Below, piece after piece: positions 1,911 to 49,084 of a DNA stretch of 64,000 nt. A program made the position numbers and the translations under genes. The notes under the pieces are model-generated. The model ran no database searches. It was not told the origin of the DNA and saw only the letters and a program-made list of their open reading frames with translations. Numbering within the stretch: position 1 is the stretch's first letter; each line of letters opens with the position of its first letter. Source of the stretch: Candidatus Bathyarchaeota archaeon B24 (GTDB lineage: Archaea > Thermoproteota > CALKCG01 > B24); NCBI GenBank assembly GCA_001593865.1, contig LUCB01000003.1, positions 30,781-94,780 of the forward strand. Direction: 5' to 3'.

Positions 1911-2660
1911 CTAAGTTAACGTCTTTGCGAAACGCTTGTAGGCTATGTAATAAAACGCTATAATAGAGAATATTAATACTGCGAAATCTGTAGCCAGCAT
2001 GGTAAGATTATTTACGCCGACGATCGACTGGTAGATCATATCTACGGAGTAAGTTAGGGGGATCAGGTAGGCTATGAACTTCAGCGAAGGCATGAATGCG
2101 TATATCTCATCTATCGGCATGAACACGCCTGCGAAGAAGATCATGAAGAACCTGACGAAGTTCATCGGCCACATGACATCGGCTATGTCCTCGGCTGAGG
2201 CAGAGAACGCTAAGCCCAGAGCACACGCAGAGAGCACGGATAAGGCTACCGCTACCACGAGGAGGGCTGCGTTGAGATTCCAGAAGCCGGCGAACGGAAG
2301 TATTATCGAGAGAACTATAAGGGTTATCGGAAAGCTGAACGTGAATCCTGCAAGACTTTTACCGAGTAGAATTGTCTTCAGCGAGACAGGTGCAAGTAGA
2401 AGCCTATCTATAGTCCCGGTTCTTCTCTCGAGCGGAAGTATAACAGCCTCGACGGTTGTCCCTCCGAAGAACGTCGATAAGGCCGTGACCCCCACGACCC
2501 TATAGTCCTCTGTGACGCATGGCCTCCCTGCAAGAAACGCCCCAAACATAGCGAAGGGCAGAACTACACCGTAAAACAGCGTAGCCGGCTTACTATAGTA
2601 AGTCTTGACATCTTTCTTAGCTATTACAAGTGCCTTTTTCAGGGTTAAAACTATGCTCAT
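1911..2660 (-). CDS. ABC-2 type transporter permease (6 TM)
   Basis: The ORF-track entry 1911..2789 is trimmed to the internal ATG at 2660 (MSIVLTLKKALVIAKKDVKTYYSKPATLFYGVVLPF...). That ATG forms an ATGA overlap with the stop of the upstream ATPase gene. The remainder is hydrophobic and multi-pass, with ABC-2 family character. Confidence 0.75.
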   Translation of the reverse strand: MSIVLTLKKALVIAKKDVKTYYSKPATLFYGVVLPFAMFGAFLAGRPCVTEDYRVVGVTALSTFFGGTTVEAVILPLERRTGTIDRLLLAPVSLKTILLGKSLAGFTFSFPITLIVLSIILPFAGFWNLNAALLVVAVALSVLSACALGLAFSASAEDIADVMWPMNFVRFFMIFFAGVFMPIDEIYAFMPSLKFIAYLIPLTYSVDMIYQSIVGVNNLTMLATDFAVLIFSIIAFYYIAYKRFAKTLT

Positions 2661-3670
2661 CTTCTTCTCCTCCTCCCAGAGGGTCTCACAAGCTCCAGCC
2701 TCTCGACATCGACGGCTGTCAGCCCCGTAAGCTTCACAAATACGTCTTCTAGGCTCGGTGTCAGGGTTCTTACCGAAATAATCTTCCAACCCTTTAAGTC
2801 GGCTAGGCCCGTAAGCTTGGATAATGTCGCGGAGGGATCTCTGGTGTATATTCTAAACTTATCCCCGGACCTCACCACGTCGCCTCCGACGACCTTCAGA
2901 TCCTCAAGACTAGGTATGGGTGAGATGGAGACCTCTATGCTTAACTCACCTCCGATGGTCTGCTTAAGCCTCTCAGGCTTATCAAGGGCTACTAGATGCC
3001 CTCGATTAATTATTCCCACCCTCCCGCAGAGATTATCAGCCTCGTCTATGAAGTGGGTTGTCATAAAGATTGTAACACCCTCCTTATTCAACTTCCTCAG
3101 GACGTTCCTGATGATCCTTGTACTCTGAACGTCTAACCCACTCGTAGGCTCGTCGAGAAAGATTATTTCGGGGTTATGGATTAAAGCGGCCGCTATAGCA
3201 AGCCTCCTTCGCATACCCTTAGAAAAGGTCGCAGCCTTATCGTGTCTCCTCTCGTACAGCCCAAAGACTTCTAAGAGCTCTTTAGCCCTCTCGACGGCCG
3301 CATCCCTTGGAACGTCGTAGAGTTCGGCTATGAACAGGAGGTTCTCCCAAGCCGTCATCTCGACATATATGTTAGACACCTCGGGAACGACCCCCATGAG
3401 CCTCTTAACGTCTAAGGGCCTCTCCATTATATTAACCCCCATTATGAGCGCCTCACCCTCAGTAGGTGTAAGGAGCCCAGTAAGCATCCTGACGGTGGTG
3501 GTCTTCCCGGCTCCATTGGGTCCAAGCAAACCGAAGAACTCGCCTTTAAACACTTTCAAGTTCAACCCGTTAACGGCCGTGAATTTACCATACCGCTTAG
3601 TGAGATTCCGCGCCTCGATAGCCACGTTAACGTCAGAGCGCAAATCTCCGTAAGAAGACAGTTCCTGCAT
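2657..3670 (-). CDS. ABC transporter ATP-binding protein, DrrA/CcmA (ABC-2 partner) type with C-terminal accessory domain
   Basis: Walker A is GLLGPNGAGKTT, the signature is FSKGMRRRLAIAAAL, Walker B is IIFLDEPTSGLD and the H-loop is TTHFIDEA. It is translationally coupled to the ABC-2 permease. Confidence 0.9.
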   Translation of the reverse strand: MQELSSYGDLRSDVNVAIEARNLTKRYGKFTAVNGLNLKVFKGEFFGLLGPNGAGKTTTVRMLTGLLTPTEGEALIMGVNIMERPLDVKRLMGVVPEVSNIYVEMTAWENLLFIAELYDVPRDAAVERAKELLEVFGLYERRHDKAATFSKGMRRRLAIAAALIHNPEIIFLDEPTSGLDVQSTRIIRNVLRKLNKEGVTIFMTTHFIDEADNLCGRVGIINRGHLVALDKPERLKQTIGGELSIEVSISPIPSLEDLKVVGGDVVRSGDKFRIYTRDPSATLSKLTGLADLKGWKIISVRTLTPSLEDVFVKLTGLTAVDVERLELVRPSGRRRRR

Positions 3671-3796: not shown

Positions 3797-4720
3797 ATGT
3801 CTAAGCCCTTGCCCATCATATTGGTTGTATTACTTATTATGCTTAGCTTATCCTTATCTGTGTTGGCTGAAGACGGTGACAGGGACTACGAGGTTTTACA
3901 GGTACGCGATGTAACTCCTACCATGCTTAAACCAGTGACGACTAATGTGACGGTTGAGTCTGCTACTGAGTATTTTGGAATGGGCGTTAAGCCAGCGATT
4001 ATATGCGTCTTCAGAGTGTGCAATGTTGCGTTTAAAACCCTTTGGCCTGGGGAGTCTCCGCTTAGGTCGGACATCCTAGTCATAACCACGAACCCGACTA
4101 GGGCAGTAAGAGATACATTTGAGTTTATAACTAGATGCGTTTCAAGACATAAATACATCCTTAAAAAAATCCCAGGTACATCTTCCATAAAACTGACACC
4201 TGAGAACTGGGTTTTCACGATAGTGAACGAACCTACAGGAGAGGCTGTTGAGATAAAGGTTAGAAAAGAAGTATTCCCTGAGAACTTATTCGAACTTAGG
4301 GCTTCTGTTAAAAGCAAGATCAAGGCTGGAGAGACCCCGAGTGAAGAGGAGATGAAGGCATTTAAAAAAGCTACGGCAGAATTCACCAAACGCTTAAAAA
4401 CCTGGAGTGATGAGGAGCTGTTTGAGGTTAGAACCTTCAGCTACACTCCCGAGCCGCTGGACTTGGAGTCTATGATAAGCTACTATCTCCCAGAAGCCCT
4501 TTCTGAATGGAGGAGGCTGAAGGGGGTCGAGGAGGAGTACAATACGCTCAAGACCGATTACGAGCAGCTTCAGACATCTTATCAGCAGCTGTTGTCTGAG
4601 GTGGAAGACTTAAGAACACAGCTTTCTCAAGCCCAAACCGTTCAGTGGATACTCGGCACGTTAACCGCTATATTCGTCATCGCGACAATTTACCTAGGTT
4701 TAGCTAGAAAACGAAGCTAA
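3797..4720 (+). CDS. Secreted, C-terminally anchored protein with a coiled-coil stalk; the globular domain is possibly FmdE/FwdE-like (weak)
   Basis: Signal peptide PIILVVLLIMLSLSLSVLAED. There is a heptad-rich stretch (EEEYNTLKTDYEQLQTSYQQLLSEVEDLRTQLSQAQ) followed by the TM helix ILGTLTAIFVIATIYLGLA-RKRS. A TATA-like element lies ~25 nt upstream. Confidence 0.6.
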   Translation: MSKPLPIILVVLLIMLSLSLSVLAEDGDRDYEVLQVRDVTPTMLKPVTTNVTVESATEYFGMGVKPAIICVFRVCNVAFKTLWPGESPLRSDILVITTNPTRAVRDTFEFITRCVSRHKYILKKIPGTSSIKLTPENWVFTIVNEPTGEAVEIKVRKEVFPENLFELRASVKSKIKAGETPSEEEMKAFKKATAEFTKRLKTWSDEELFEVRTFSYTPEPLDLESMISYYLPEALSEWRRLKGVEEEYNTLKTDYEQLQTSYQQLLSEVEDLRTQLSQAQTVQWILGTLTAIFVIATIYLGLARKRS

Positions 4721-5280: not shown

Positions 5281-5430
5281 ATCCTTGATCTAAGAAATGA
5301 AGTAGAAATAGACCAAATTTAAATTTTTCTTTTCAAACTTTTCTTCTCTCTAGATTCAGTTGATAGTTTTCCTTGGAAAGTGAAAAGGCTTATATAAGGT
5401 TTCGTTCGATTTTAAATCCCGGTGTAACCA

Positions 5431-8400
5431 GTGAGACCGGTTAAGCTTTCAAGTCATCGGACTCATCCGGCCGTGTCTAAGGCCTTCCTAGTAACTCTTA
5501 TCGCCATGCTACCGCTGGCGTTAGTAGGTTCAATCCTTGTGTCACCAGCATATTCGCAGCTTCAACCTCAAAACCAAGAAGAACTAATGGCCATGTTCAA
5601 GGAAGTCCTAGATAACATTGACCAAAAAGAAATTATGGAGCATGTAGCCTTCTTTTCAAGCTGCGGGTCTAGGGTTACAGGGTATCCCGGCTTCTTCAAG
5701 GCCATGGATTATGTCGTCTCTAAATTTGAAGAATATGGTATTCAGCCCTACGGTGAGGACGGCTACTTCGAATACTTCTACATAACGATTCCCGTCGACT
5801 ATGGAGCTAACATATTGCTTGAGGATGGTGAGGTTCTCCACGGCTATAATCTTTGGCCTAATCTAGTTAACCCGTCGCCTTATAGGAGTCCGCCTGAAGG
5901 CGATTTATTGGTTTATGTCGGTGGAGGAACGTTCGACGACCTTTCTAAGGTAAACGTCACAGACCGATGGGTGTTGATGGATTTCGACAGCAGGTGGTTC
6001 TTCCGTCTGGCTGCGATGTTCGGCGCCAAAGGTGTAATATACATAGGTACTGGGAAAGAATCTAGGATGGAGGCGTTCCAAAAGCTATACAACGTACCGA
6101 TGGCGTTTCCGAAGATCTACCTAAACCCGGAGGACGGTCTTCGTCTGAAGGAGCTATGCGAGAAGCAGGGTGAGGTCAAGATCTGGATAAACTCGTTGAT
6201 GAGGTGGGAGCGCATACGGGTCGCCAACATAGTAGGCTTCATACCAGGCACCGCTAACGCCTCGGAGATAGGGGTCATAACAGCCTATTTAGATTCCTGG
6301 TCTATAGTCCCTGCCCTATCCCCTGGGGCGACCGATGCCCTAGGTATCTCCGCGCTCTTGAACTTCGCGAAGTTTTTGGCTAAGAACCCGCCTAGGCGTT
6401 CGGTCATGCTTGTCGTCCTAGCCGGGCACTGGCAGAGCTTATGGGGTGCTAGGGAATGGGTCGACAGGCACTTCGACATACTTGGGACTTCTGTGAAGTT
6501 CTTCGTAAGCCTAGACCTATCGGCTGGTAGCCAGCAATTAGCCGTATACAACCGTGGCAACGTATACTCATACACCAACCTGCAGACCCTAAACAGCCGA
6601 TACACATCGCTGATAAACCTCCTGTTCAGGACATACTTGCCTGTGCTGAGGGATGACTCTCTCCTCGGAGAACGCTTCGGCGCCTACTTCATAGACGAGA
6701 TACTGCTGACCTATCCTCCTTGGATAAGCGCATGCCCGCCTACGGAGTTCCTAGGGGCAACCTACTTCGACTCTGAGCCTTACGTAGCCGCATGCTACGG
6801 TGGAGGCTTCGCTTTCCATACGACGAACGATGCAAGAATCTATATGAAGGGCCCTGGCGACACTTATGACCGAATCCAGTGGGACAACTACTGGCCTCAA
6901 GTGCAGTTTATATGTACGTCGCTGTACGGTTTATTGAACGAGCCTGTGATAGACCTACCTCAGTCACCTTCGAGGCTGGAGGCTACAGGTGAGTGGGGCT
7001 ACTGCAGCTTGACGATCAAAGTCGTTAGCTACAATATGACGACGGCTTACTGGGACCCCTTCGACGCTGAGAGGCATCCAGAGGCGATAAACGACACGAT
7101 AGTTCATTACCAATCTACCGCGGCACCGGCTATGCAGGCTGTACCTTCATACGCGGCGTTCGGTGCGGCGTTCATCATGGGTGTACTAGATGTCATAGCT
7201 AAGCCTGATGAAAACGGCGTCGTGGTGATTAAGGGTATAAAGCCTTACACGAGCGGGATGGTAGATGCGTTTGTGATAAATAGCACTAACGGTGAGATAG
7301 AGTGGGCCACCGACATAGGCGTGTATTCGCCTTATCAGTCTAAGATCGCCTCTGTGACGACGGTAAATGCATCGTACTTATGTTCAATATTCAGGTGCGC
7401 AAGCATAGTTCTGTTTGCGTTATTCAATCCGTCCGACCTAAGCTCGATGCCGAACGTGGTGCTATACAACAGGCTGGCTCATGGACCATTGATTCAGCAG
7501 AGCTTCTTAGTTTCGATGTACGGTGACGTGATGGCGTTTATCCAACCGGATATACCGGTTGAGATCCTCATCACACGAGGCCGAGCATTCGGCATGGCGG
7601 CGACAGTGGCAACCTCCGGCGCTGCATTAGGCTCGGTAGGTTTCATCGGAGCCTTCCTCGGAGGAGGTGGTGGAGGTAGGTTCCCGATGGGTATTCTAGT
7701 GAACAGCACCGCTGATTTTCCAGAGGGATATGGATATAAAGTAAGCGCAGGAAAAACATTGAGAATACCGTTCACACCCATGCTCTACGCAAGGGACATC
7801 TTCTTGTTAAACGACGGTAGGGTGAAGCTGGCTGCGAAGTACTTTACATTTAACCCAGTCACCATAATGTTCCATGGATTAGCTGAAAAGTATCTAAAAC
7901 TGGCTTTAGAGGCATACAGGCAGAGAGACTATGGGCTGAGCTATGCATCGGCCTACGCAGCTTGGGCTTATGAGCAGGTAGCATACTACTCTATGATGGA
8001 TCTAATATGGCAAGTGATATACACCATAGTGGTGATATCCATCGCTATAATACCGTTCGCATATGCGATGAGCAGGCTCGTCGGGTTCGAAGGTCGTAGG
8101 CTAATAGCTGGTGTGATCATGCTCTTTGGAATCATGCTGATCGTGCTCGACATATTCCATCCAGGTTTCCACTTGGCTAGCAACGCCGGTATGGCGATCT
8201 TGGCATTCGGTACCGCCATAATAATACTGCCGCTACTGGGCTTCGTGATACGTGAAGCCATGATGAGCGCCAAGACTCTGAAGGAAAGAATGATCGGTAT
8301 GCACACCGCCGAGATAAGCCGCTCCGCCATAGCGTTTCAGGCCTTCTCGCTATCGATTCAGAACATGCGTAGACGACGTTTCATGACGGTGCTGACCCTA

Positions 8401-10125
8401 GTCTCCATAGTGATACTGGTCTTCTCGATGGTCACGTTCACCTCGCTTATGGCTGCACCTAGGCCTGTAGAGGACGTACGAACCATATCGGAGGGGGAGA
8501 CACCGCCGCTGTATCAGGGTATACTGATACGTAGGCCTGTGTGGTCGCCTATACCGGAGGAGATGTACTATCAGGTCATCCACCAGTTTAAGGGTACAGG
8601 CATATATTCGGCTAGGGGTTGGCTGTTCCCACCGCCTCCGCAGAGAGGTTTAGGGTTCTTCGCGTTCTCAGATAAGCTGATAACAAAGGTAGGTGCCGTC
8701 TTATTCCTGAGCCCTGAGGAAAAGGAGCTCTCCCACATAGACGAGATACTGCTACCCGGTAGCGACTGGTTTGGACCTGACGACGTTTACACATGTATCA
8801 TAAGTAAAACCATGGCTGATAACCTGACTAAAGAGTTGGGTAGGCCGATAACGATAGGCTCGGTTATACCGTTTCTAGGTATGAATCTTAGGGTTATAGG
8901 GATGTTCGACGGTGACCTTCTATGGTCTGGAAGCGAGGGTTTCGTAGATTTAGATGGTGAACCCATAACGCCGCTTATGCCGTTGATAACGACGGGTGCT
9001 GGTAGGGCTGTGCCGTTCCACTTCACCGGAGACTTGATAATGCTTATGCCTCTTAAGGCCTGCCTTCTACTTAGGGAGCGTGCCTACATAGTGAGCATAG
9101 CGTACAAGCCATATAACACGACTGCTATACGCGAGATCGCCCGTAACTTAGCCCTGAGGATCGCGACTGATGTGTATTACAGCGACGCGCCGGATAGAAT
9201 CGGGATCGTGAGATACCGGCAGTGGTTCACGGTCACAGGGTTTGAGACGTTCATAGCCCCGACGATAATCTGTAGCTTCACGATCTTGAACATGATGCTC
9301 GCTAACGTCCACTACAGAACCAGGGAGATCTCTATCTACATGGCTGTAGGCCTGTCGCCACTCCACGTTTCGATATTGTTCCTCGCAGAATCGCTAGTGT
9401 ACGCCCTGTTAGGGACGGTTCTAGGGTACGTGTACGGCGTGATCGGGTGCTGGATCTTCAACATATTCGGCCTATATCCGCCAGGATTCTACCCCAACTT
9501 CTCGTCGTTCTACGTGTTCATCGTGCTAGGGTCAGCCTCACTAGTAACCATACTCTCGACGGTTTATCCATCGATAAAGGCGTCGAGGCTTGTGACACCT
9601 TCCCTCGAGCGTAAATGGAGGGTTCCTCCGCCTCGTGGAGACGAGTGGGAGATACGGATGCCCTTCGTGTTCTCGGGTAGAGAGATCTACGGGTTCCTAG
9701 CGTTCGTGAACGAGTATTTAGACGCGCATAGGACCGAGGGAGTGGGTGCCTTCGCCACCTTCGGAGATATCGAATGGAAATCTGAGAGGGATCCGCTAGA
9801 GGAGAGGGATACTAAGACGTTGATAGCTAACGTACGTCTTGCGCCGTTCGACGTAGGCATCACCCAGAAGGTGATGGTTATAGCCGAATCGCAGAGGAAA
9901 CGACCGTATTCGCTTACCCTATACCTCCAGAGGACGACTGGGTTGTTAAGCGACTGGGTGAACTCCAACAGACCGTTCATAGACAACATGAGGAAGCAGC
10001 TGTTGATATGGAGAACGTTGAAGCAGACGGATAAGGAGAAGTACATCGACCTAGGGTTAACGTTATTTAGGAAGAAGCTCGGTATTGGTGACGAAGAATT
10101 TAAGAAGTATCTGGATCTAGAATAG
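5431..10125 (+). CDS. Giant (1564 aa) membrane fusion protein. Domain order: anchor, PA/M28-peptidase-like ectodomain with degenerate catalytic motifs, helical stalk, 3-4 TM helices, MacB/FtsX-type permease, ~170-aa cytoplasmic C-terminal domain
   Basis: ITAYLDSW, PGATDALGISALL and LAGHWQSLWGAREW align with M28 motifs AHxDSW, GAxD(D/N)xSG and EExGLxGS, but the metal and catalytic residues are replaced. LSIQNMRRRRFMTVLTLVSIVILVFSM matches MacB TM1. NMMLANVHYRTREISIYMAVGLSPLHVSILFLAESLVYALLGTVLGYVYG is an FtsX domain. The GTG start is uncertain; an alternative GTG lies at 5473. Confidence 0.8.
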   Translation: MRPVKLSSHRTHPAVSKAFLVTLIAMLPLALVGSILVSPAYSQLQPQNQEELMAMFKEVLDNIDQKEIMEHVAFFSSCGSRVTGYPGFFKAMDYVVSKFEEYGIQPYGEDGYFEYFYITIPVDYGANILLEDGEVLHGYNLWPNLVNPSPYRSPPEGDLLVYVGGGTFDDLSKVNVTDRWVLMDFDSRWFFRLAAMFGAKGVIYIGTGKESRMEAFQKLYNVPMAFPKIYLNPEDGLRLKELCEKQGEVKIWINSLMRWERIRVANIVGFIPGTANASEIGVITAYLDSWSIVPALSPGATDALGISALLNFAKFLAKNPPRRSVMLVVLAGHWQSLWGAREWVDRHFDILGTSVKFFVSLDLSAGSQQLAVYNRGNVYSYTNLQTLNSRYTSLINLLFRTYLPVLRDDSLLGERFGAYFIDEILLTYPPWISACPPTEFLGATYFDSEPYVAACYGGGFAFHTTNDARIYMKGPGDTYDRIQWDNYWPQVQFICTSLYGLLNEPVIDLPQSPSRLEATGEWGYCSLTIKVVSYNMTTAYWDPFDAERHPEAINDTIVHYQSTAAPAMQAVPSYAAFGAAFIMGVLDVIAKPDENGVVVIKGIKPYTSGMVDAFVINSTNGEIEWATDIGVYSPYQSKIASVTTVNASYLCSIFRCASIVLFALFNPSDLSSMPNVVLYNRLAHGPLIQQSFLVSMYGDVMAFIQPDIPVEILITRGRAFGMAATVATSGAALGSVGFIGAFLGGGGGGRFPMGILVNSTADFPEGYGYKVSAGKTLRIPFTPMLYARDIFLLNDGRVKLAAKYFTFNPVTIMFHGLAEKYLKLALEAYRQRDYGLSYASAYAAWAYEQVAYYSMMDLIWQVIYTIVVISIAIIPFAYAMSRLVGFEGRRLIAGVIMLFGIMLIVLDIFHPGFHLASNAGMAILAFGTAIIILPLLGFVIREAMMSAKTLKERMIGMHTAEISRSAIAFQAFSLSIQNMRRRRFMTVLTLVSIVILVFSMVTFTSLMAAPRPVEDVRTISEGETPPLYQGILIRRPVWSPIPEEMYYQVIHQFKGTGIYSARGWLFPPPPQRGLGFFAFSDKLITKVGAVLFLSPEEKELSHIDEILLPGSDWFGPDDVYTCIISKTMADNLTKELGRPITIGSVIPFLGMNLRVIGMFDGDLLWSGSEGFVDLDGEPITPLMPLITTGAGRAVPFHFTGDLIMLMPLKACLLLRERAYIVSIAYKPYNTTAIREIARNLALRIATDVYYSDAPDRIGIVRYRQWFTVTGFETFIAPTIICSFTILNMMLANVHYRTREISIYMAVGLSPLHVSILFLAESLVYALLGTVLGYVYGVIGCWIFNIFGLYPPGFYPNFSSFYVFIVLGSASLVTILSTVYPSIKASRLVTPSLERKWRVPPPRGDEWEIRMPFVFSGREIYGFLAFVNEYLDAHRTEGVGAFATFGDIEWKSERDPLEERDTKTLIANVRLAPFDVGITQKVMVIAESQRKRPYSLTLYLQRTTGLLSDWVNSNRPFIDNMRKQLLIWRTLKQTDKEKYIDLGLTLFRKKLGIGDEEFKKYLDLE

Positions 10126-10137: not shown

Positions 10138-12099
10138 ATGACCGAGCAGGAGATTCGCCCTGGACTGACTTGGAGGTCAGTGTTAGCTCTGATATTCTCC
10201 CTATTTCTAGTGCAGCCGGTGATGATATACTACTACCTCATAAGCGCTCAATGGTTTCCGCTTCAGGCTTGGATAGTGATCCTGCTATGGTCGGAGATCG
10301 CGCAGTTCCTAGGCTCCCCGTTGACTAAACAAGAACTCTTCATCCTGCTGAGCTTCCAGTGGATGGCCTCCTACTATGCCATGCTATTCAGCATGGGCGG
10401 CCCATACGACTTGGTGAAGAATGCATACATGGCCTACAGCCCTGAAGCACAGGCCCTAGGGATCTCACAGTACGTTCCGTCTTGGTGGGTACCGCCTCAA
10501 AGCGAACTCATAAGATTGACCATGGAACGCACGTTCCTCTACCTCGACCCGGTGTGGCTTATCCCGTTGGGGATAGCGGTTTTAGCATTGATATTTAACA
10601 TGGTCGCCGATATATCCATGGGTTATTTCACCTACTCGCTCTACGTGAAAGTGGAGAAGCTTCAGTTCCCCGCCGCTAGGGCAGCCGCCGAGACCGTCTT
10701 AACGCTGGCTGAGAGAGACCCACTACATATGAGGATACTGATGCTATCTATTCTCTTCGGTGCGCTCTACGACTTATTCGTGAGCTTCCTACCATACCTA
10801 CTCGGACCTTACCTAGCCAGTGGAGGAGCCGCGATCTACACGGTTCTTCTACCGATCGCTCAAACCTTCGACATGACACCTGTGATAGCGCACTTCCTAC
10901 CAGGGTTCGGCTTCGCCTTCACCTTGAACTTGATGACGTCTCCGGCAGGCTACATATCAGGGTTCATACTCCCCATCGACATATGCCTAGCCCAGTTCCT
11001 AGGAGCCTTCAGCTACTACTGTATAGGAACGCATCTGATAACGAGGTTTAACCTCTGGCCGGCTGAAAGTCCATATGATATTTCGTGGCCGCTGGCTATA
11101 CTTGTCCAAAGGTCTCAGCTATACTTCTACACGAGCCTCACCATAGGTATGGCCTTGGCAGCCACGTTCCTTCCGATGCTGATAAGACCTAAATCGTTCA
11201 TCAGGGCCTTCAGTTCGCTGGCTAAAGCGAAAGGTGCAGAGGGAGAGGGTCCTCCGCTATACTTGCTACTCGCGGCTTTCCTAGGGGCGTGCACTGGAGG
11301 CATGCTACTAGTATACTTCCTGACAGGGTTCCCGCTTTGGATTCTAGCAATATTCATGATCGGCGGTTCGTTCTTCGCGTCGTTTATGGGTGCAAGCGCC
11401 GCAGGTGTTACCACTACCGGATTTAACGTGCCTATGCTTCCGCAGCTTATGATATATCTGACCGGTTGGCAGGATAAGCGCATATGGTTTGCTCCGACAA
11501 ACATATACGCCGGAGGCCCAGGCATAGCCCAGGCGTTTATGCAGGCGGACATACTGAAGGCTAGAAAGTCCGAATATATCAAGACCTATATACTGATATT
11601 CTTCGTAGGCGTTCTCGTTACCATACTCTTCGTGTCATATTTATGGACTCTATCGCCTATACCGTCTGGAGCGTATCCTGCTACGATGGTCTACTGGCCG
11701 GTCGACGCCATGAACTGGGCTAGATGGCAGGTCTGGATGTGGTCCGGCTACCTGTTCAGGAAAGACCTTCTGATCGGAGGATTCGCTATAGGCTCGGTGA
11801 TATACCTGATAACGGATCTTATATTCCATAAACCATACTTCCTAGTGGCTTTCATCAGCGGAGCATATGGTAGCTGGTTTGGATATACCATGCAGCTTCC
11901 ATACACGCTGGCCCAGCTGATAGGGTCGATAATCGGTAACGTGGTCGTAGCCAGAGTTCTAAGTAGGAGGACAAAGATACCTTACGGCGTATTCGCCTAC
12001 AGGTTCTTCATGGGTACCACGATCGGATGGGGTCTGATGGAGAGCATAAGAGCGTTACTGGTGCTAGTCAGCCGAGCGATGTGGCTACTGCCATACTAG
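10138..12099 (+). CDS. Polytopic membrane protein (653 aa, ~14-16 TM); distant relative of 12215..14254 and 15101..17095, possibly OPT-superfamily-like
   Basis: Highly hydrophobic throughout. The motif YVKVEKLQFPAARAAAETVL sits at the same relative position as WLDIERVPFPYVIATHELI and WIDVEKVPFTHVMAAHEII in the two downstream paralogs. Confidence 0.75.
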   Translation: MTEQEIRPGLTWRSVLALIFSLFLVQPVMIYYYLISAQWFPLQAWIVILLWSEIAQFLGSPLTKQELFILLSFQWMASYYAMLFSMGGPYDLVKNAYMAYSPEAQALGISQYVPSWWVPPQSELIRLTMERTFLYLDPVWLIPLGIAVLALIFNMVADISMGYFTYSLYVKVEKLQFPAARAAAETVLTLAERDPLHMRILMLSILFGALYDLFVSFLPYLLGPYLASGGAAIYTVLLPIAQTFDMTPVIAHFLPGFGFAFTLNLMTSPAGYISGFILPIDICLAQFLGAFSYYCIGTHLITRFNLWPAESPYDISWPLAILVQRSQLYFYTSLTIGMALAATFLPMLIRPKSFIRAFSSLAKAKGAEGEGPPLYLLLAAFLGACTGGMLLVYFLTGFPLWILAIFMIGGSFFASFMGASAAGVTTTGFNVPMLPQLMIYLTGWQDKRIWFAPTNIYAGGPGIAQAFMQADILKARKSEYIKTYILIFFVGVLVTILFVSYLWTLSPIPSGAYPATMVYWPVDAMNWARWQVWMWSGYLFRKDLLIGGFAIGSVIYLITDLIFHKPYFLVAFISGAYGSWFGYTMQLPYTLAQLIGSIIGNVVVARVLSRRTKIPYGVFAYRFFMGTTIGWGLMESIRALLVLVSRAMWLLPY

Positions 12100-12214: not shown

Positions 12215-14254
12215 ATGAGCGAGGAGGTTAAGGAGTTTAGGATAAGTCCATCGCTGCTCGTTCCCTTGATAATCCTAACAGCTGTACTATCTTTCATAGG
12301 GACAGTTGAGATCGCTTTAAACGGCTCTGTCGGCGGCGCCTTCATGTGCCGCTACGCGTGGGGTACGGTCTCCAAAACCATGGGCATACCGATAATGTCC
12401 CTACTAGTAATACTACTAGCCTTCCCGTTCAAATATCTGAGAGGTCGATTGTCACCCTCTATGCTCGTCTCCCTCTACATCGTCGGTGCTGCTGTGGCGA
12501 TGTACGGTATCGGACACTACGAGACGTTCGCCTGCTGGCCAGTAGGATTCGCCAGAACGCTCCTGTATACTGAGCCGGAGTTCCTACCGGTCGCGGAGAG
12601 CTGGTGGTGGATGCCACCCCATGACGTGGTAGAGCTTATAGTCGCAGGCGGAGTAGCAACAGACTGGGGTGCATGGTCGGGAGCCATACTTTTCTGGTCG
12701 CTATATCTGCTGGTCTTTTATCTTTTCGGCTCTAGCGTGATGCTGCTCTTCAGACGGAGATGGCTGGACATAGAGAGGGTTCCGTTCCCATACGTCATAG
12801 CAACCCACGAGCTCATAAGAAGGGTCTCAGGAGAACGCGGATTAGAGAAAACTATGAAGTGGTTCATAATCGGTTTCGTCATAGCACTACTGTTTGAGAT
12901 ACAGGTTACATGCACATATGTATGGCCGTGGTGGCCAGACCTGCTAGCGTGGAGAGGCACGGCTGTGGATGAAACAAGCCCACAGGGATGCGTATGTATC
13001 TATCCTAACGACCCCATTGAAAGTACTCTCGTATGGTGGCCAGGCTATACGAAGAACATCCTACCGTTTCTAGTGTACTATCTAGCACCTCTTGATGTAT
13101 TGCTTTCAGCATGGGTGTTCTTCTTGATAGTGGTAATACTTGCTCAGATAGCCTACATGATGGGTTACTACACAGGGGTCTTCGACATGGGTAGCGCCTG
13201 TAGGATCCTAGGATGGGCGGGCTCCGATATATCGCCTCTCTTCGGTCCGCCATACTACTGGATGTGGGTGACTATGATAGGTGGTACATTCGCCGTGACT
13301 GTGATGATGATGTTTCATGCTAGAAGCTACCTCGCCGAGACCATAAGGCTCGCCATGCGCGGAGGCAGGTCTCCAGAGGAGGCAAACGAACCATTCACCT
13401 ACAGACAAATCTACATATTCATCATACTATCTGCGATAATACTACTAGCCTTCTGCTTTTCAGCAGGACTATCCATCGGAACATCTCTAGCAGTGTTGAT
13501 TGTAGGTGCGTTCATAAACACCGTGGCGGCCGCGTATGTTTTAGGCTTAAGCGGCTGTGGCTACATACATGAGAGGGCTTTATGGCCCAGCTGGCCTCTG
13601 AGGTTCATATGGCCCACAGCTCCTCAAAACTACAGCGCAGACTGGATAATGAGCCACGTCTTCATGCATACAGGGCTTAACCACGTGACGCACGGGGTAC
13701 AGACAGGGGCCTACCTTACGATCCAGAACCTTAAGATGGGTGGCTTAGCTAAGATAAACCTCCGAGATGTGTTCATACTGACTACTATAGCCAGCATCAT
13801 AGCGATATTCGTCGGGAACGCTACCAGGGTTTGGATAATAAACCTTCTAGGTGTTGCGCGTGTACCGATATGGGGTAGCTGCTCGGTTACTCAATGGTGT
13901 GACAACGACTTTGAAAGATATGCACAAGCTCCACCTGCTGAGTTCCAGTTTACCGCAGGTGCTGCAGGTTTCTTGATAACGATGATACTGTTCCTTCTGA
14001 GAGCTAGGTTTGTATGGTGGCCTCTACACCCCGTCGGCTTCATCCTGGCTACCGGTGTAGCGCCTAACTGGATGAGGGAGTGGAACGCCATGCTGGGTGC
14101 TTGGATAGCTAAGTTCCTGACCCTACGCGTAGGCGGTAGCAGAGCCTACGAAGAATACGGCGTACCCTTCGTAAGCGGAGGGATAGCAGGATACGCACTG
14201 TCAAACCTGATAGCCTACCTAATAGGCACGGTGAGGTTCTTCATACCGTTCTAA
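12215..14254 (+). CDS. Polytopic membrane protein (679 aa), clear paralog of 15101..17095
   Basis: Long collinear similarity to the paralog. DWGAWSGAILFWSLYLLVFYLFGSSVMLLFRRRWLDIERVPFPYVIATHELIRR aligns with NWGAWTIPILYWSLLHIVFYLFMASIVTIFRRRWIDVEKVPFTHVMAAHEIIRY. The C-termini LTLRVGGSRAYEEYGVPFVSG...VRFFIPF and LTLKVGGTRAYEDYGIPVAVG...VRFFVPF also align. Confidence 0.8.
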   Translation: MSEEVKEFRISPSLLVPLIILTAVLSFIGTVEIALNGSVGGAFMCRYAWGTVSKTMGIPIMSLLVILLAFPFKYLRGRLSPSMLVSLYIVGAAVAMYGIGHYETFACWPVGFARTLLYTEPEFLPVAESWWWMPPHDVVELIVAGGVATDWGAWSGAILFWSLYLLVFYLFGSSVMLLFRRRWLDIERVPFPYVIATHELIRRVSGERGLEKTMKWFIIGFVIALLFEIQVTCTYVWPWWPDLLAWRGTAVDETSPQGCVCIYPNDPIESTLVWWPGYTKNILPFLVYYLAPLDVLLSAWVFFLIVVILAQIAYMMGYYTGVFDMGSACRILGWAGSDISPLFGPPYYWMWVTMIGGTFAVTVMMMFHARSYLAETIRLAMRGGRSPEEANEPFTYRQIYIFIILSAIILLAFCFSAGLSIGTSLAVLIVGAFINTVAAAYVLGLSGCGYIHERALWPSWPLRFIWPTAPQNYSADWIMSHVFMHTGLNHVTHGVQTGAYLTIQNLKMGGLAKINLRDVFILTTIASIIAIFVGNATRVWIINLLGVARVPIWGSCSVTQWCDNDFERYAQAPPAEFQFTAGAAGFLITMILFLLRARFVWWPLHPVGFILATGVAPNWMREWNAMLGAWIAKFLTLRVGGSRAYEEYGVPFVSGGIAGYALSNLIAYLIGTVRFFIPF

Positions 14255-14340: not shown

Positions 14341-14934
14341 ATGATCAAGTGGATAGTCTCCCTAGGTCTCTCGTTGCTCGCTCTCGGCTCTCTCCTATTC
14401 ACGGTTTCTCAAACCCTGGGAACTCGCTCCCAGTCGATAACGCCTGAGGTATTATTGTATGAGGATAGGTTTGAGATGAAGCGTGAAGAAGTCAGGGTCT
14501 ACAACTTCACGTTTCCCCAGAACGTGACGGTCGTCACCATCGTAGGGTCCAACATGTGCGTAGGCCTTAGAATATACAACGAGACGTTTCAAGAGTTTAT
14601 CGAAGAGATGGGTGGATTAAGCATGGTGAATTACACCGGCATCGCTGAGCTTCTGGGGAATCTGCCTAAACCAATCTCATGGTCCCACAGCGAGTATTAC
14701 AGACATTTGATACCAAACAATAGAACCATGACCTACTACTTCATACTCTACAACTACCCCGCATGTTATCCTAAAAGCGTCCACTTGGAAATAGGATACA
14801 CCACCGGTAAGATAGAAATGCCCGAGGAAGAACCCATAACGTTTAGAAACCAGCTACTATCGACGGGTTTAGCCTCGATAGCCTTAGGGCTCCTGTTAGC
14901 ACTATACGGGTTCATAAAGGAGCCTAAAATATAA
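14341..14934 (+). CDS. Bitopic membrane protein (197 aa), paralog of 4747..5280
   Basis: N-terminal TM is IVSLGLSLLALGSLLF and C-terminal TM is LLSTGLASIALGLLLALYGFI-KEPK. It has several N-x-S/T sequons (NFT, NVT, NET, NYT, NRT). The similarity blocks are listed under 4747..5280. Confidence 0.6.
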   Translation: MIKWIVSLGLSLLALGSLLFTVSQTLGTRSQSITPEVLLYEDRFEMKREEVRVYNFTFPQNVTVVTIVGSNMCVGLRIYNETFQEFIEEMGGLSMVNYTGIAELLGNLPKPISWSHSEYYRHLIPNNRTMTYYFILYNYPACYPKSVHLEIGYTTGKIEMPEEEPITFRNQLLSTGLASIALGLLLALYGFIKEPKI

Positions 14935-15100: not shown

Positions 15101-17095
15101 ATGTCTGTTGAAAGAGTTGAGAAGGTTTCTTTACCTTTGGTAGTGGTTTTCAGCGTCTTCCTCGCCTTCATAAGCATAGTTTGGATAAGTCTACTTCCAT
15201 CCGGCCTTTGGCATTTCTACAACTTAGGTATAGTGGCATGCCCCCTACAGCTCACATCGGCGCCGTTTATAACGATTTTACTTCTGATCGCCATGAACAA
15301 AGCTGGACTTTTAAAGAAGCTTAAAGTCTCTACGATCGTCTATTTCTATATAGCCGCTGTTTCCGTGGCCTGGTATACGGATTATGCCGCTACTTCTGAA
15401 TGGTACGCTGGGGTATGGCATAATCGGAGATACTACCCAGACCTATCCCTACGGTATGTACCATGGTACTTAGCGCCTCCAACCGAAGAGGTTGAACGGC
15501 TCCTCGTAGGAGGTCCCATAAACTGGGGAGCATGGACTATCCCGATACTGTATTGGTCGCTGCTTCACATAGTCTTCTACTTATTCATGGCATCTATCGT
15601 AACGATATTCAGGAGAAGATGGATCGATGTCGAGAAGGTGCCGTTTACACACGTCATGGCCGCCCATGAAATCATAAGGTACACGTTTGAAGAAAAAGGG
15701 GAGACAAAGGCTAAACTGATTAAACCGTTCAGCATAGGAATACTACTTGGACTTATCGTGCAGATACCTATATACATGACGGTCATGTTTCCATGGTTCC
15801 CGGACATTTACGGTTGGAGAGTAAATACGTGCGGACATGGGGGATACTGGATTCCGCCGGAATCACCTCTTTCGTCGATAGTGGGGTTAAGCATGATCCA
15901 GAAGCATCCGGTATTCATAGCTATAGGGTATCTAGTACCCCTATCAATGCTCCTAAGCACCTGGGTGTTTCACCTAGTCTACATCATAGTGGTGCAGATA
16001 GCGTTCACCCTTGGATACTATACAGGTCTAGACACTATCGGAGGGTGCGGTAGAGCCTGGTGTGGGACCATAACGCCGAACTTCGGTGAACCGTTTAAGT
16101 TTATGTCGTTAAGCTATGTAGGAGGCTCAACAGCCCTAACGCTGATCTATCTTCTGCTTAACTGGAGATATGTGAGAGATACGATATCTGCTGCATTAGG
16201 CAGAGGTCCTCTAAAGCGGTACGAGGATGAAGAGCCGATGTCTTACAGATACGCGTATGCTCTGTTGGTGGTCTCCATAATATTGATACTAATCGTCCTA
16301 TCAGGCTGGGGTATGGGAGTCGCTTCGTCATTGATCTTGATATTTACTGTCTTTATCTTCTGGATCGCTAATACCCGTATCTGGGGTTTAGCAGGTTGCA
16401 CCCTCCAAGGGGCTGAGCACGGTAATGCCTTTTATCGGCTGTTCATGTGGCCTCAGGCCCCGCAGCCTCCGACGATGGAGTTTATGGCGTCTGCGTATCT
16501 TTCAGAGTGGCTCGTAGACGTGCCTAAATCGTTTGGTGGAGCTGCACTATCTTTCGCCGCTGGCTATAAAATGGCAAATCTAACAAATATTAGAAGCCGC
16601 GATGTGTTTAAGGCTGTTTTAATAGCGGGAATACTCGGATATCCCGTTGTCATGGCTACATACGTCTACATGTGTCACACCTTTGGTCTCACGCATCTAC
16701 CGGTTTGGGCTGAGAGTACGTATGACTCGTTAATCGATAGATGCGGGAACCCTGACAACTGGAATGTGAGGCCTGGGGAGGAACCGTGGTGGCCTAACTT
16801 CTTAGCCGGGTTTATAATAGTGGCTTTGTTGAGCTGGCTACATGCAAGGTTCATGTGGTTCCCGCTGGAGCCTATAGGGTTTATACTAGGCACCTCCTAT
16901 ATGTCTAGTCTGTGGGGTATCTGGTTTCCGTTTCTGATATCTTGGGTCTTGAAAACTTTAACCCTGAAAGTCGGGGGGACGAGGGCTTACGAAGACTACG
17001 GGATACCGGTGGCCGTCGGCTTCATAACAGGCTACATGGTAGCTGTGCTGGTCGGAGGGGCTATAGGCATAGTGAGGTTCTTCGTACCGTTCTAA
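15101..17095 (+). CDS. Polytopic membrane protein (664 aa), paralog of 12215..14254
   Basis: See 12215..14254. It has its own TATA-like element and a downstream T-tract. Confidence 0.8.
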   Translation: MSVERVEKVSLPLVVVFSVFLAFISIVWISLLPSGLWHFYNLGIVACPLQLTSAPFITILLLIAMNKAGLLKKLKVSTIVYFYIAAVSVAWYTDYAATSEWYAGVWHNRRYYPDLSLRYVPWYLAPPTEEVERLLVGGPINWGAWTIPILYWSLLHIVFYLFMASIVTIFRRRWIDVEKVPFTHVMAAHEIIRYTFEEKGETKAKLIKPFSIGILLGLIVQIPIYMTVMFPWFPDIYGWRVNTCGHGGYWIPPESPLSSIVGLSMIQKHPVFIAIGYLVPLSMLLSTWVFHLVYIIVVQIAFTLGYYTGLDTIGGCGRAWCGTITPNFGEPFKFMSLSYVGGSTALTLIYLLLNWRYVRDTISAALGRGPLKRYEDEEPMSYRYAYALLVVSIILILIVLSGWGMGVASSLILIFTVFIFWIANTRIWGLAGCTLQGAEHGNAFYRLFMWPQAPQPPTMEFMASAYLSEWLVDVPKSFGGAALSFAAGYKMANLTNIRSRDVFKAVLIAGILGYPVVMATYVYMCHTFGLTHLPVWAESTYDSLIDRCGNPDNWNVRPGEEPWWPNFLAGFIIVALLSWLHARFMWFPLEPIGFILGTSYMSSLWGIWFPFLISWVLKTLTLKVGGTRAYEDYGIPVAVGFITGYMVAVLVGGAIGIVRFFVPF

Positions 17096-22582: not shown

Positions 22583-25500
22583 TTGGAGTTGAGGACTGGT
22601 TCTTTTAAAATCTTTTTGGCTGTTTTAGCGGTTATGTTGTTGTTTCCTGTTTCTACTTCGACGGTTGCTCAAGAAGCCTCTAAGGATGTAAAATGTACGT
22701 TAGTTATGTATATTATGAATTTTATGACGAGTTCCCCGGAGCCTAGAATTAATGTGTCGGCTATTTTAACCAACGTAACTTTAAGTGGTGTTACGGATGA
22801 ATTTGGATGTGTGAAATCTTCTTTCAACGCTTCAAAGGATCTCGTTAATAATCTTATGTTGAATGAATTATCGTTGTATGGGAATTTTACTGTGATAAGG
22901 ATTCAGGATTATTTGATGGAAGACTTGCAATATGATTCGTTTTATTCTGAATCTACTGTGACTTACACGGGTTTGGCTATAAGACCAAGGGTTGTGGAAA
23001 GTAGGAGGGAGACTCTTCTGTATTATTATGTGTACGTGTTAAAGAGTAGAGTGGTGAACGTGAGTGACTTGGATGTCTCGACCATGCAGATACTTCCTAG
23101 CGGCGATTTACGTATTAGATGGCGGAGAAAGCTTATCTTGGATGCCAGACCTGCTGTTCCTATAGATAGGGGGGCTAGTCGTTATGAGAGTCTTTATCTG
23201 TTCCCGTTAAACTATACGGTTAATGTAAAAGTAATGGTTTATCGCTATGGTTTCTTAGTTGATGAGTATTCTGTTAAAACGCTTGTAAGTGGTAACAGAA
23301 CCTACGTAAATATTATGGGGCCGATTCTAGATATTAAGATTAACGAAACGTTAAAGCCTTTTGAGGAGGAGATAGCTACGCTTAAGTTCTTGGGTTTATC
23401 TATGATCGATGAGGAGAGGCTTCTCATAAGGATTAATAATCAGAAAGACAGTATTCTGAGGTTGATCGAAAATAGGAGTTATGATCCTGCTTTCGCTCAA
23501 TTAAGGTTCTTAGCTAAGAAGGTTGCTGAGTTAGGAAGTAGGCTATCTAACTTAGGTGCCTCTTTAACATGGTCTTCTATACTGGTTATGGCGTTTATCT
23601 ACGCGTTTTCATCGCTTTTACCTACTCTGATGACTGACGATGCTAAAAGAAAGCTTATCATGAAATTTGCGATATATTTCTCTTTGTTGTTGATTTTCCT
23701 ATATAGCCATAACGAGTTTAAGATCGCAGTATCTATGATATCTTCTAACATCCTTCTAACCGATATTAAATACCTTGATGACTTCACAGTACTGCTTATG
23801 GGTGTGGGCGTGGGGAGTCTAGGGGTTCTTATACCCACTTTGATATCGCTTTATTCTCCCCCGGTGGTGAGCTTAAGCCTAGACTTGAGTATAAGAGATC
23901 TTAAACGACATCTATCAAGATCTCTTCTAACGATTTTCGCGTTCTCCCTCATAATAGCGTCGACGCTGGCTGTTTTTAAGATATCATATAGCCACATGCT
24001 CTCCGAGACGGAGACGATTGCTCGATTCAAGCGCGACATAATATGTCTGCAATCCACGACCAACAATATAATCGTTAAAGACAATTTAATATTCTTGAAG
24101 TCTATGCCTTGGATTAACTCATCCTATTTGTTTAAATCACTGTATGGTGATATTTCATTGGATAGTCTCTCAGGTTTTGCCGCTATCAGGTTGATTTCGC
24201 GAGATTATGGTATGCTTGAGCAGCGGTTCGACATTTTAGGAGTCGACCCGGAGTTTCTAGATGAGTACTTCAACTTCTCTACGACGATTACTAAAGGCGG
24301 GTACCTCTCTGGAAGTGAGAGAGCTATCCTTGTTCCAGCCTCGTTGGAGTATTACTTGAGGCCGTTAGATAGGGTTAGGATGCGCTTTGTGATCGTGAGT
24401 TCTGTAGGTCAGCAGTTAACGGATGTGGCTGAATACGACTTTGGAGAGTTTATTGTTAAAGGGTTCTTCGACCCAGACTCTGTCGATAGGATTACACTTC
24501 CTGATGGGTCGCCGTTGATAGATGTATCGTATAAGACGGTAATAGTACCCGGAGACCTCCTGCCAGATTCGATAGATGCGCGTCATCTGACTATAACAAT
24601 TCCTAGGCTTAGAAACATCGTATCCTTCTCGGGACCAACGTACATAGACATACTTAAAGTCCAATATGCGTTCTTATTGCCAGACCCCAGTAGCGGAGTC
24701 GACGTTTATGAGAAGGCTAGGGAGCTTATGGATCTGACGGGCTTCCGGACGTTTGGTTTCTCAAACGGAGTCTGTAAAACATATGAGGAATTGTATGTTC
24801 TGAACGTCGTGGGCTTCTCATCGATCGTGCCTCCCCTCGTGATAGTTACGCTTATAATCGTGTTGGTCATGAACTCCGTCATCTATGAGCGGCGTAGGGA
24901 GATATGGACCCTAGCTGTATTAGGCGGTAACCCACGTAACATAACAAACATGTTTCTTACAGAGGCGTTGATCACAGGAATCCTGTCGACAACCATAGGC
25001 TATCTATGCTATACCACCGTCTACTTGTTGTCCGGGGTGCTGATACCCATCATACAGAGCTTGAACCCTGAGCTTGTTAAGCTCTTCGTGGAGATGAAGT
25101 CCGCATCAGGCTTCGACCTTTCCTCCATCCTTGTAGTGTTGTTCATAGGTTTGGCAGTCCCCGTGATCGGCAGCTACATACCCTGTATAAAGGCTCACGG
25201 CCTAACCCTCCTCGGTAGACCTCCTAAGAGGAACATAAGTGAAGATGTACGGACGAGAGGGGAGTTAGCTGAATATTCTCTCCCGATCAGAGCTACACCT
25301 TTCGACGGGGAGATGCTTTATAACTATCTGAAAGACAATTTCCTCACGAAGACCTTCCAGGTTAAGAAGCTCTCTGGGAACGCTTATCAAGACGGGACCT
25401 TCGACTTTAAGTTTACGCTACAGTTCAGGAACGTGCTCACCGAGTGTAACTTAAAGGGTATTAGACGGGGAGATACGATATATCCTGTTCTAACATTCCC

Positions 25501-45496: not shown

Positions 45497-45751
45497 ATGG
45501 GCTCCTCTCAGAAGATCAGGTTTGATATATTTAAGCACGAGCTTGTCCCTAAACACAGCATCTTGTCGAAGGATGAGGTAGAAGATCTCCTAAGGAGATA
45601 CCATGTCAAGAAGTATCAGCTCGCTAAGATCATGGCCCGCGACCCGGCTGCGGTGGCCATAGGCGCTAAGCCCGGTGATGTCCTCCGGATCGTTAGGAGG
45701 AGCCCGACAGCCGGTTTAGCTGTATTTTACAGGTTTGTAGTGGAGGGTTGA
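45497..45751 (+). CDS. rpoH: DNA-directed RNA polymerase subunit H (Rpo5)
   Basis: HELVPKHSILSKDEVEDLLRRYHVKKYQLAKIMARDPAAVAIGAKPGDVLRIVRRSPTAG is the canonical RpoH/Rpb5 C-terminal domain. Confidence 0.9.
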   Translation: MGSSQKIRFDIFKHELVPKHSILSKDEVEDLLRRYHVKKYQLAKIMARDPAAVAIGAKPGDVLRIVRRSPTAGLAVFYRFVVEG

Positions 45752-49083: not shown

Positions 49084-49084
49084 A

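Follow-up and report, generated by a model that had tools for sequence, protein, structure and literature searches.

A mainly archaeal protein family joins an M28 peptidase fold with a remodeled active site to a MacB/FtsX-type permease module beside an OPT-like gene

The 64,000-nucleotide stretch of Candidatus Bathyarchaeota archaeon B24 analyzed here (the window; contig LUCB01000003.1, positions 30,781 to 94,780) carries a 1,564-codon open reading frame (ORF) at 5431-10125 on the forward strand. Its 1,564-residue product, which we call the M28-FtsX protein, joins an M28/PA peptidase-like ectodomain to a MacB/FtsX-type permease module. By alignment, four of the six catalytic positions of the M28 fold have clearly been replaced, with one retained and another probably so. 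The altered site is conserved throughout a large family, and a gene for an OPT-like membrane protein lies directly downstream in nearly every locus. Our favored reading, to which we give a probability of roughly 40%, is that the ectodomain is a non-hydrolytic, ligand-binding M28 head mounted on a mechanotransmission module that works together with an OPT-type transporter.

A homolog search with the M28-FtsX protein returned more than 300 proteins of ~1,500 residues each (best E = 0), and the gene is therefore taken to be real. Candidate starts are GTG 5431, GTG 5473 and ATG 5506. A 98%-identical homolog (P0001) is shorter by 14 residues, so GTG 5473, which matches it, may be the true start. 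TATA-like elements are found upstream of the annotated GTG in the region 5385-5420, namely TTATATAA at 5391-5398 and TTTAAA at 5412-5417, and the leader of the transcript may be very short or absent. AlphaFold (AF2) models were built in two parts, residues 40-860 and 850-1564, each on a 53-sequence alignment. The gene and the parts of its product, including its transmembrane (TM) helices, are as follows.

5431-10125, forward strand: M28-FtsX gene, pseudo-M28/PA ectodomain plus MacB/FtsX-type permease (1,564 residues)
5485-5541, forward strand: residues 19-37, N-terminal hydrophobic segment, signal peptide or signal anchor (hydropathy peak 2.59; followed by AYSQ)
5566-6945, forward strand: residues ~46-505, M28 aminopeptidase-like domain (Pfam M28, profile, AF2, Foldseek)
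5902-6168, forward strand: residues ~158-246, PA insert within the M28-like domain (profile alignment to 2ek8)
7003-7770, forward strand: residues ~525-780, beta-rich ectodomain region (AF2 secondary structure and confidence, hydropathy)
7774-8007, forward strand: residues ~782-859, three long helices leading from the ectodomain to the membrane (AF2 model)
8014-8250, forward strand: residues 862-940, three extra TM helices (hydropathy, structure model, family alignment)
residues 941-983, forward strand: cytoplasmic amphipathic linker (hydropathy and AF2 layout)
8380-9564, forward strand: residues 984-1378, MacB/FtsX-type four-TM module (Pfam, NCBIfam, Foldseek, profile)
9586-10122, forward strand: residues ~1386-1564, conserved C-terminal cytoplasmic domain (family alignment, AF2)

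The N-terminal half has the fold of a PA-domain M28 aminopeptidase. Pfam Peptidase_M28 (PF04389) matches residues 266-379 (E = 3e-10; 40.6 bits against a cut-off of 21.3), and the model of residues 40-860 reached a predicted local distance difference test (pLDDT) score of 90.7 and a predicted template modeling (pTM) score of 0.89. When this model was compared with the PDB by Foldseek, the top match was 3iib (E = 1.9e-21), and 2ek8, BSAP, PaAP, GCPII/GCPIII and the transferrin receptor (TfR) were also matched, at E-values up to ~1e-17. The PA-domain/M28 aminopeptidase layout proposed by an earlier model's reading of the DNA, made without database searches (the sequence-only reading), is borne out by this comparison with aminopeptidases and with TfR and GCPII, and the M28 alpha/beta fold is present. 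The PA domain, inserted in the peptidase domain, is supported by the family profile, which matches 2ek8 at E = 3.6e-27 over PA and M28 regions alike and also aligns across the PA region of 6hc6, and by the PA-containing structures at the top of the fold search. Several homologs have a precomputed match to PF02225 (PA); a direct Pfam search gave no PA match in the M28-FtsX protein of the window.

The catalytic positions were mapped by searching the PDB with family profiles and with the single sequence, using the alignments to 1amp, BSAP (6hc6) and 2ek8. The 1amp chain is numbered as mature Aeromonas aminopeptidase (AAP), so the ligands can be read directly from the alignment.

6286-6288, forward strand: Tyr286 at the position of AAP His97 (Zn2 ligand), replaced
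6334-6336, forward strand: Asp302 at the position of AAP Asp117 (bridging ligand), probably retained
6427-6432 (with Trp334), forward strand: His333 at the position of AAP Glu151 (general base), replaced
6427-6432 (with His333), forward strand: Trp334 at the position of AAP Glu152 (Zn1 ligand), replaced
6514-6516, forward strand: Asp362 at the position of AAP Asp179 (Zn2 ligand), retained
6847-6849, forward strand: Lys473 at the position of AAP His256 (Zn1 ligand), replaced

Three motifs named in the sequence-only reading proved exact on re-reading the DNA: ITAYLDSW (residues 283-290, with Tyr286), PGATDALGIS (6322-6351) and LAGHWQSLWGAREW, which carries His333-Trp334. That reading was right on these first motifs and left the last two ligand positions, the equivalents of Asp179 and His256, unlocated. 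For the latter, the M28 motif YHTPxDT, which contains His256, aligns in register with YMKGPGDT here and with xTPxDT in the family, leading to Lys473. This second aligned stretch is low-scoring, and its Thr, Pro, Asp and Thr are exact for the family consensus. His463 (in FAFHTTND) was considered as the fifth ligand and rejected, since the profile alignments place YHTPxDT on YMKGPGDT. The loop around Asp302 is one residue shorter than in the M28 enzymes (GA-T-D-A-L-G versus GA-D-D-D-A-S-G), and HMMER pairs Asp302 with the ligand Asp in BSAP (6hc6) and with the next Asp in 1amp and 2ek8. Counted from the strongly conserved PGA turn, Asp302 stands at PGA+2, the position of the ligand Asp in AAP, BSAP and 2ek8, so it probably corresponds to the bridging Asp117.

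Three of the five zinc ligands are lost on this alignment, the set reading Tyr286, Asp302 (probable), Trp334, Asp362 and Lys473, and the general base Glu151 is His333. The Zn1 half-site (Asp117, Glu152, His256) appears destroyed, with Trp334 and Lys473 at its two specific positions, while the Zn2 half-site (His97, Asp117, Asp179) appears half kept and reads Tyr, Asp, Asp. Judged from these residues, the ectodomain cannot work as a canonical M28 peptidase of the co-catalytic di-zinc kind. The earlier claim that all catalytic positions are replaced nevertheless went too far: the replacements at 286, 333, 334 and 473 stand, Asp362 is retained, Asp302 probably is, and close to a third of relatives have His at 286.

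The best matches in sequence as well as fold are the PA-domain M28 aminopeptidases, namely BSAP/YwaD of Bacillus subtilis (6hc6), the Aneurinibacillus AM-1 enzyme (2ek8), the Shewanella protein 3iib and PaAP of Pseudomonas. They have the same PA-inserted fold and domain order as the M28-FtsX protein and the motifs RxxGxxG, xxDS, PGAxD, GxxG(A/S) and TPxDT in common with it. However, these enzymes are soluble, secreted and di-zinc, with the His/Asp/Glu-Glu/Asp/His set intact, whereas the M28-FtsX domain has four of six positions replaced and forms the head of a polytopic membrane protein.

The substitutions are fixed across the family. Residues were counted first in 121 homologs and then in 248 diverse members, including representatives of clusters at 50% identity. 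Glu occurs at neither EE position in any of the 121 homologs or the 248 members (0/248). Among the 248, position 286 is Tyr in 146, His in 77 (31%) and Phe in 13; position 302 is Asp in 111 and Glu in 104, with Ser, Gln or Ala in 27; and position 362 is Asp in 204. Position 333 is His in 225 members (91%) and position 334 is mostly aromatic, while Asp at 288 (246/248, 99%) and Arg at 341 (227/248, 92%) are nearly invariant; position 473 is variable and unconserved. Asp288, His333, Arg341, Asp477 and Asp362 rank at the 88th-100th percentile of conservation within the domain. Because the pocket residues rank so high, the former active site is taken to be under purifying selection in a new form, remodeled rather than randomly decayed. 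The sequence-only reading had likened the changes to the decay seen in TfR; this likeness does not hold, as few parts of the domain are better conserved than the altered site.

TfR1, Nicalin and NAALADL are nonetheless instructive relatives. Like the M28-FtsX protein they are membrane-attached M28/PA folds without a working di-zinc site, they are significant profile matches, and they are used for binding or scaffolding; unlike it, they come from eukaryotes, with one TM helix each. By analogy, the M28-FtsX protein resembles such a non-catalytic M28 relative mounted on a type VII ATP-binding cassette (ABC) permease. TfR binds its ligand away from its vestigial active site. In contrast, the vestigial site itself is most conserved in the M28-FtsX family, and one half-site is largely kept. 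Given this conservation in altered form, the pocket would be a working one and not a TfR-like relic, and its strong conservation argues for a ligand-binding site. The most likely ligand would be a peptide or peptide terminus, possibly with one metal ion.

A second precedent is glutaminyl cyclase, an M28 fold with a single zinc that lost one metal site and changed function, and to which the family gave weak matches (4fbe, 6qro). In glutaminyl cyclase, the half-site that persists is Asp/Glu/His (Zn1-type), together with the catalytic Glu. The M28-FtsX family has preserved the other, Zn2-type half, with His in the place of the base, which makes it a clean case of active-site repurposing in the M28 clan that mirrors glutaminyl cyclase.

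The C-terminal half is a MacB-type permease, as the sequence-only reading had it. Pfam FtsX (PF02687) matches residues 1279-1386 (E = 7.8e-14), the Pfam MacB_PCD match is weak and below its cut-off, NCBIfam groups the module with MacB and LolC/E, and the family profile matches MacB at E = 2.8e-17. Foldseek comparison of the model of residues 850-1564 (pLDDT 88.1) with the PDB returned Spr0694-0695 (5xu1), LolCDE, MacB, YtrF, HrtB, YbbP and FtsX at E-values down to 7e-11, with the four-TM bundle matching 5xu1, LolCDE and MacB at a probability of 1.0. Hydropathy places TM segments at residues 19-37, 862-880, 891-909 and 922-940 and, for the FtsX bundle, at 984-1002, 1273-1291, ~1313-1335 and 1360-1378. 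The structure model agrees, so the extra TM helices claimed earlier are real on both counts; an HP motif at residues 910-911 in their midst is invariant across the family alignment.

Between TM1 and TM2 of the module lies an extracytoplasmic core domain of ~270 residues (~1003-1270). The modeled fold aligns over 460-490 columns with LolC/E and MacB, and also with the YknZ ectodomain 5f9q. The TM2-TM3 loop is conserved, with the family consensus YERxREI containing the FtsX 'ERxREI' motif. After TM4 comes the C-terminal cytoplasmic domain, which has a TPSLERKW motif followed by a beta-alpha-beta4-alpha3 fold; Pfam and NCBIfam gave no match to it, and Foldseek gave weak helix-grip-like matches (E ~0.07). 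The M28-FtsX protein thus has in common with the type VII ABC permeases (MacB, LolCE, FtsX, YtrF, HrtB, Spr0694-0695) the four-TM module, the TM1-TM2 extracytoplasmic domain, the N-terminal amphipathic helix and the conserved TM2-TM3 loop. It differs from them in four additional TM segments, an 820-residue N-terminal ectodomain, a ~180-residue C-terminal cytoplasmic domain, the lack of a LolD/MacB-type ATPase within ±10 kb in the archaeal loci and a near-obligate OPT-like neighbor.

The beta-rich region of the ectodomain contains two hydrophobic Gly/Ala-rich loops, at residues 566-583 (nt ~7126-7179) and 719-748 (nt ~7585-7674), one of which reads AATVATSGAALGSVGFIGAFLGGGGGGRF. Both have pLDDT below 50 and coincide with hydropathy peaks, and they could be flexible or touch the membrane.

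Gene context was surveyed in 43 loci, 4 from exact-protein look-ups and 39 from a genome scan with an alignment of 8 closer sequences, in which ORFs were called and searched with the proteins of the window. The M28-FtsX gene is followed in the window by three consecutive OPT-superfamily-like proteins of ~650-680 residues, one highly divergent and two of the DUF6785+DUF6784 type.

10138-12099, forward strand: OPT-superfamily partner, 653-residue polytopic membrane protein (hhalign; Pfam OPT in orthologs)
12215-14254, forward strand: DUF6785+DUF6784 OPT-like paralog (full-length OPT match, E = 1.8e-5, 24.0 bits against a cut-off of 25.8)
15101-17095, forward strand: second DUF6785+DUF6784 OPT-like paralog (Pfam)

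Only 12 nucleotides separate the stop codon of the M28-FtsX gene from the start of the 653-residue partner, and they contain a Shine-Dalgarno-like GAGGTGA, which indicates that the two genes are likely co-transcribed as an operon. A homolog of the partner stands directly downstream on the same strand in 33 of the 34 loci with enough sequence, and a DUF6785/6784 OPT-like gene is adjacent in 22 of 43. The partner gene and the lack of a linked ATPase are the most telling features of the context, and the sequence-only reading overlooked both. The 653-residue protein itself has no direct Pfam match, and BLASTP against the DUF6785 proteins of the window found nothing; the relationship is seen only by profile-profile comparison. 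There, hhalign matched its family profile to DUF6785/DUF6784 with 99.8% probability (E = 1.6e-27, 559 columns). Four of 17 partner orthologs match Pfam OPT (PF03169) directly, at best with E = 2.4e-16, which together places the partner in the OPT superfamily by sequence and profile. No PDB sequence matched the OPT-like family profile. The literature searched contained no mention of DUF6785 or DUF6784.

How these parts might work together can be sketched. The head would sit on beta-sandwich domains and a three-helix stalk, with the three extra TM helices tying it to the MacB/FtsX-type module. It would first capture its ligand outside the cell; a conformational change in the module would then position or release the ligand, driven by an unlinked and possibly shared LolD/MacB-type ATPase or by the OPT-like partner itself; and the ligand would finally be handed to the OPT-like transporter. 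Both the coupling and the presumed inward direction of transport are conjectural in this scheme. For the drive, we favor an unlinked, possibly shared ATPase over ATPase-free operation, since the family keeps the 'ERxREI' loop and bacterial members have linked LolD-type ATPases. A more specific version, in which the family is a mainly archaeal uptake or sensing machine made of a non-hydrolytic M28 receptor, a MacB-type module possibly lacking an ABC ATPase of its own and an OPT secondary transporter, is a speculation we consider unlikely. If true, it would combine type VII ABC architecture with secondary transport, and a pseudoenzyme would act as its substrate-binding protein.

Several observations weigh against the favored reading. 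No MacB/LolD-type ATPase was found within ±10 kb in the archaeal loci, and the only ATPase gene in the 64-kb window is an unrelated one of DrrA type, with no other Walker-A/ABC candidate. In the family's coupling motif 'ERxREI', the M28-FtsX protein itself has Tyr1295 at the first residue. Membership of the OPT superfamily, as assigned from sequence, is no proof of a peptide substrate. Lastly, the best Aeromonas match in the profile search of the PDB was 2anp, a chain with His at 151. We take 2anp to be the E151H variant of AAP, which presumably keeps some activity, so residual hydrolysis with His333 at the general-base position is possible. The His at 151 of 2anp therefore calls for caution in describing the ectodomain as chemically dead.

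This last point leads to the alternative that survives best, although we still rate it as unlikely: a re-tooled enzyme, using a single metal held by Tyr/His286, Asp/Glu302, Asp362 and His333 or else His333 as a base. It would be a membrane-tethered exopeptidase or other hydrolase that feeds its products to the OPT-like transporter. The remodeled residues are among the most conserved of the domain, and the 77 of 248 members with His at 286 would have a complete Zn2 half-site plus His333. The best Aeromonas match, 2anp, also has His at the base position. The pairing with an OPT-like protein suits a peptidase and a binder equally. However, M28 enzymes require Glu151 and the Zn1 site for normal rates; here the general-base Glu is present in no member, neither Zn1-specific ligand is left and position 473 shows no conservation. 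In addition, Phe286 in 13 members and Ser, Gln or Ala at 302 in 27 would break the putative single-metal site.

Somewhat harder to sustain is a role as envelope scaffold or regulator, in which the head would be a platform for protein-protein contacts like Nicalin or TfR and the module would act on extracellular partners as FtsEX does, regulating or anchoring, for example, surface proteins. In that case the OPT-like protein would play a structural part in the membrane and would not import peptides. Nicalin and TfR are significant matches of the family profile (E = 5e-10 and 3e-8), and FtsEX-EnvC structures are among the fold matches of the C-terminal half. The FtsEX-EnvC, -PcsB, -CwlO and -RipC systems likewise couple a MacB-type module to a hydrolase-like or hydrolase-regulating extracellular domain. 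There, a separate partner protein activates peptidoglycan hydrolases, whereas the M28-FtsX protein carries its hydrolase-like domain in cis and without the catalytic set, in archaea that have no murein. Among the neighbors, a C-terminally anchored surface protein of ~480-530 residues lies directly beside the M28-FtsX gene in 12 loci, and large single-FtsX proteins with other ectodomains, of the type found twice in the window, are nearby in 11 of 43. The surface protein begins with a signal, continues as a beta-rich ectodomain and closes with a TM anchor that has basic residues at its end, and it may be a partner or substrate of the M28-FtsX protein. It is missing from most loci, however, including the window, and the OPT-like protein is the sole near-universal neighbor. 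Furthermore, it is in the pocket of the former active site that conservation is concentrated, suggesting a site for a small ligand and not a broad protein interface.

Improbable, finally, is an ATPase-free anchor. The MacB-like module would have lost its ABC partner and would serve only as a dimerizing membrane anchor or be moved by the secondary transporter, and the C-terminal domain, which is conserved and partly common to the paralog at 26207-29383, would take the place of the nucleotide-binding domain. The lack of MacB/LolD-type ATPases within ±10 kb in the archaeal loci and in the window fits this reading. Against it, ABC ATPases are often unlinked or shared, the family conserves the FtsX coupling-loop motif, and LolD/MacB-type ATPases occur near bacterial members.

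Those cognate-type ATPases are confined to two bacterial loci of the survey (L004 and L043), where LolD/MacB/FtsE-type genes stand two to four genes downstream; together with the conserved 'ERxREI' loop, this suggests that an ATPase can be a partner of the M28-FtsX protein. L004 (17746-19590) is a locus of bacterial type, with FtsZ, SPOR and GrpE in the neighborhood. Here the M28-FtsX gene and the gene for its OPT-like partner precede genes for a PqqD-like small protein, a 234-residue FtsX protein and a LolD/MacB-type ATPase. This context hints at a peptide-related (RiPP-like; ribosomally synthesized and post-translationally modified peptide) setting in bacteria.

The family is large. A HMMER scan of 1.84 billion cluster representatives with residues 258-1190 as query (E ≤ 1e-30) returned 531 clusters at 50% identity, and the top 150 are nearly all 1,400-1,650 residues long. 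Most members come from metagenome-assembled genomes of Bathyarchaeia, Thermoproteota, Thermofilaceae, Brockarchaeota and Baldrarchaeia, and a few are bacterial; the nearest genome relatives of the window are hot-spring Bathyarchaeia, 79% identical over the M28 region. The fusion is thus unusual among characterized proteins, as the sequence-only reading had remarked, but it is not rare. The architecture is already in the databases under the automatic names 'FtsX-like permease family protein', 'M28 family peptidase' and 'ABC-type antimicrobial peptide transport system permease', and our literature search for an M28-FtsX fusion or an M28 pseudopeptidase in archaea found no published description of the family.

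What emerges is a large uncharacterized family, of at least 531 clusters at 50% identity, in which a peptidase fold has been converted and joined to a MacB-type module and an OPT-like transporter. M28 annotations serve as evidence of extracellular protein degradation in sediment metagenomes and archaea (PMC6752024), and such estimates would be too high if members of this family were counted as active peptidases. The family also offers a natural test case for MacB-type modules without a linked ATPase and for the role of prokaryotic OPT-family proteins.

Elsewhere in the window, two further FtsX proteins are encoded tail to tail, without an adjacent ATPase.

22583-26191, forward strand: large single-FtsX protein, 1,202 residues, with a CdvA-like coiled-coil match near its C-terminus
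26207-29383, reverse strand: large single-FtsX protein, 1,058 residues, with an FtsX match

The 1,058-residue protein and the M28-FtsX protein have in common the FtsX module, the extracytoplasmic domain and a TPSLxRK motif after TM4 (E = 2e-12), and paralogs of the 1,058-residue type account for the neighbors in 11 of the 43 loci mentioned above. Copies of the surface protein are found in L013 (7717-9204), L035 (3944-5392), L030 (four copies), L003 (6419-7891) and other loci, and one copy has a weak IgGFc_binding match.

An ABC ATPase at 2657-3670 was considered as a partner of the M28-FtsX protein and rejected, because it is of DrrA type, forms a pair with an ABC-2 permease and is linked to the M28-FtsX gene in close relatives only. 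In the archaeal close relatives, the DrrA-type ATPase again accompanies an ABC-2 permease, and another ATPase lies beside FecCD and Peripla_BP_2 genes. L039 carries a DrrA-type ATPase, and L042 has two ABC ORFs of ~610 residues that resemble putative fused exporters.

On the reverse strand at 330-1823, a 497-residue Peripla_BP_2 protein (iron-siderophore/cobalamin-type) carries additional N-terminal sequence that matches SBP_bac_11/SBP_bac_1 fragments; its counterparts in close relatives stand beside FecCD and an ABC ATPase. The forward-strand gene at 3797-4720 encodes 307 residues that form an FmdE domain and, after it, a leucine-zipper-like coiled coil, and in an 80%-identical relative (L001) a 288-residue protein annotated with a TrmB domain takes its position. 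Downstream of the first DUF6785 gene, at 14341-14934 on the forward strand, a 197-residue protein begins and ends in hydrophobic segments, has several N-x-S/T sites and is kept only in close relatives; neither this ORF nor a 177-residue upstream ORF has a Pfam or NCBIfam match. The genes for RNA polymerase B and A' are also found in the window, at 45748-52912.

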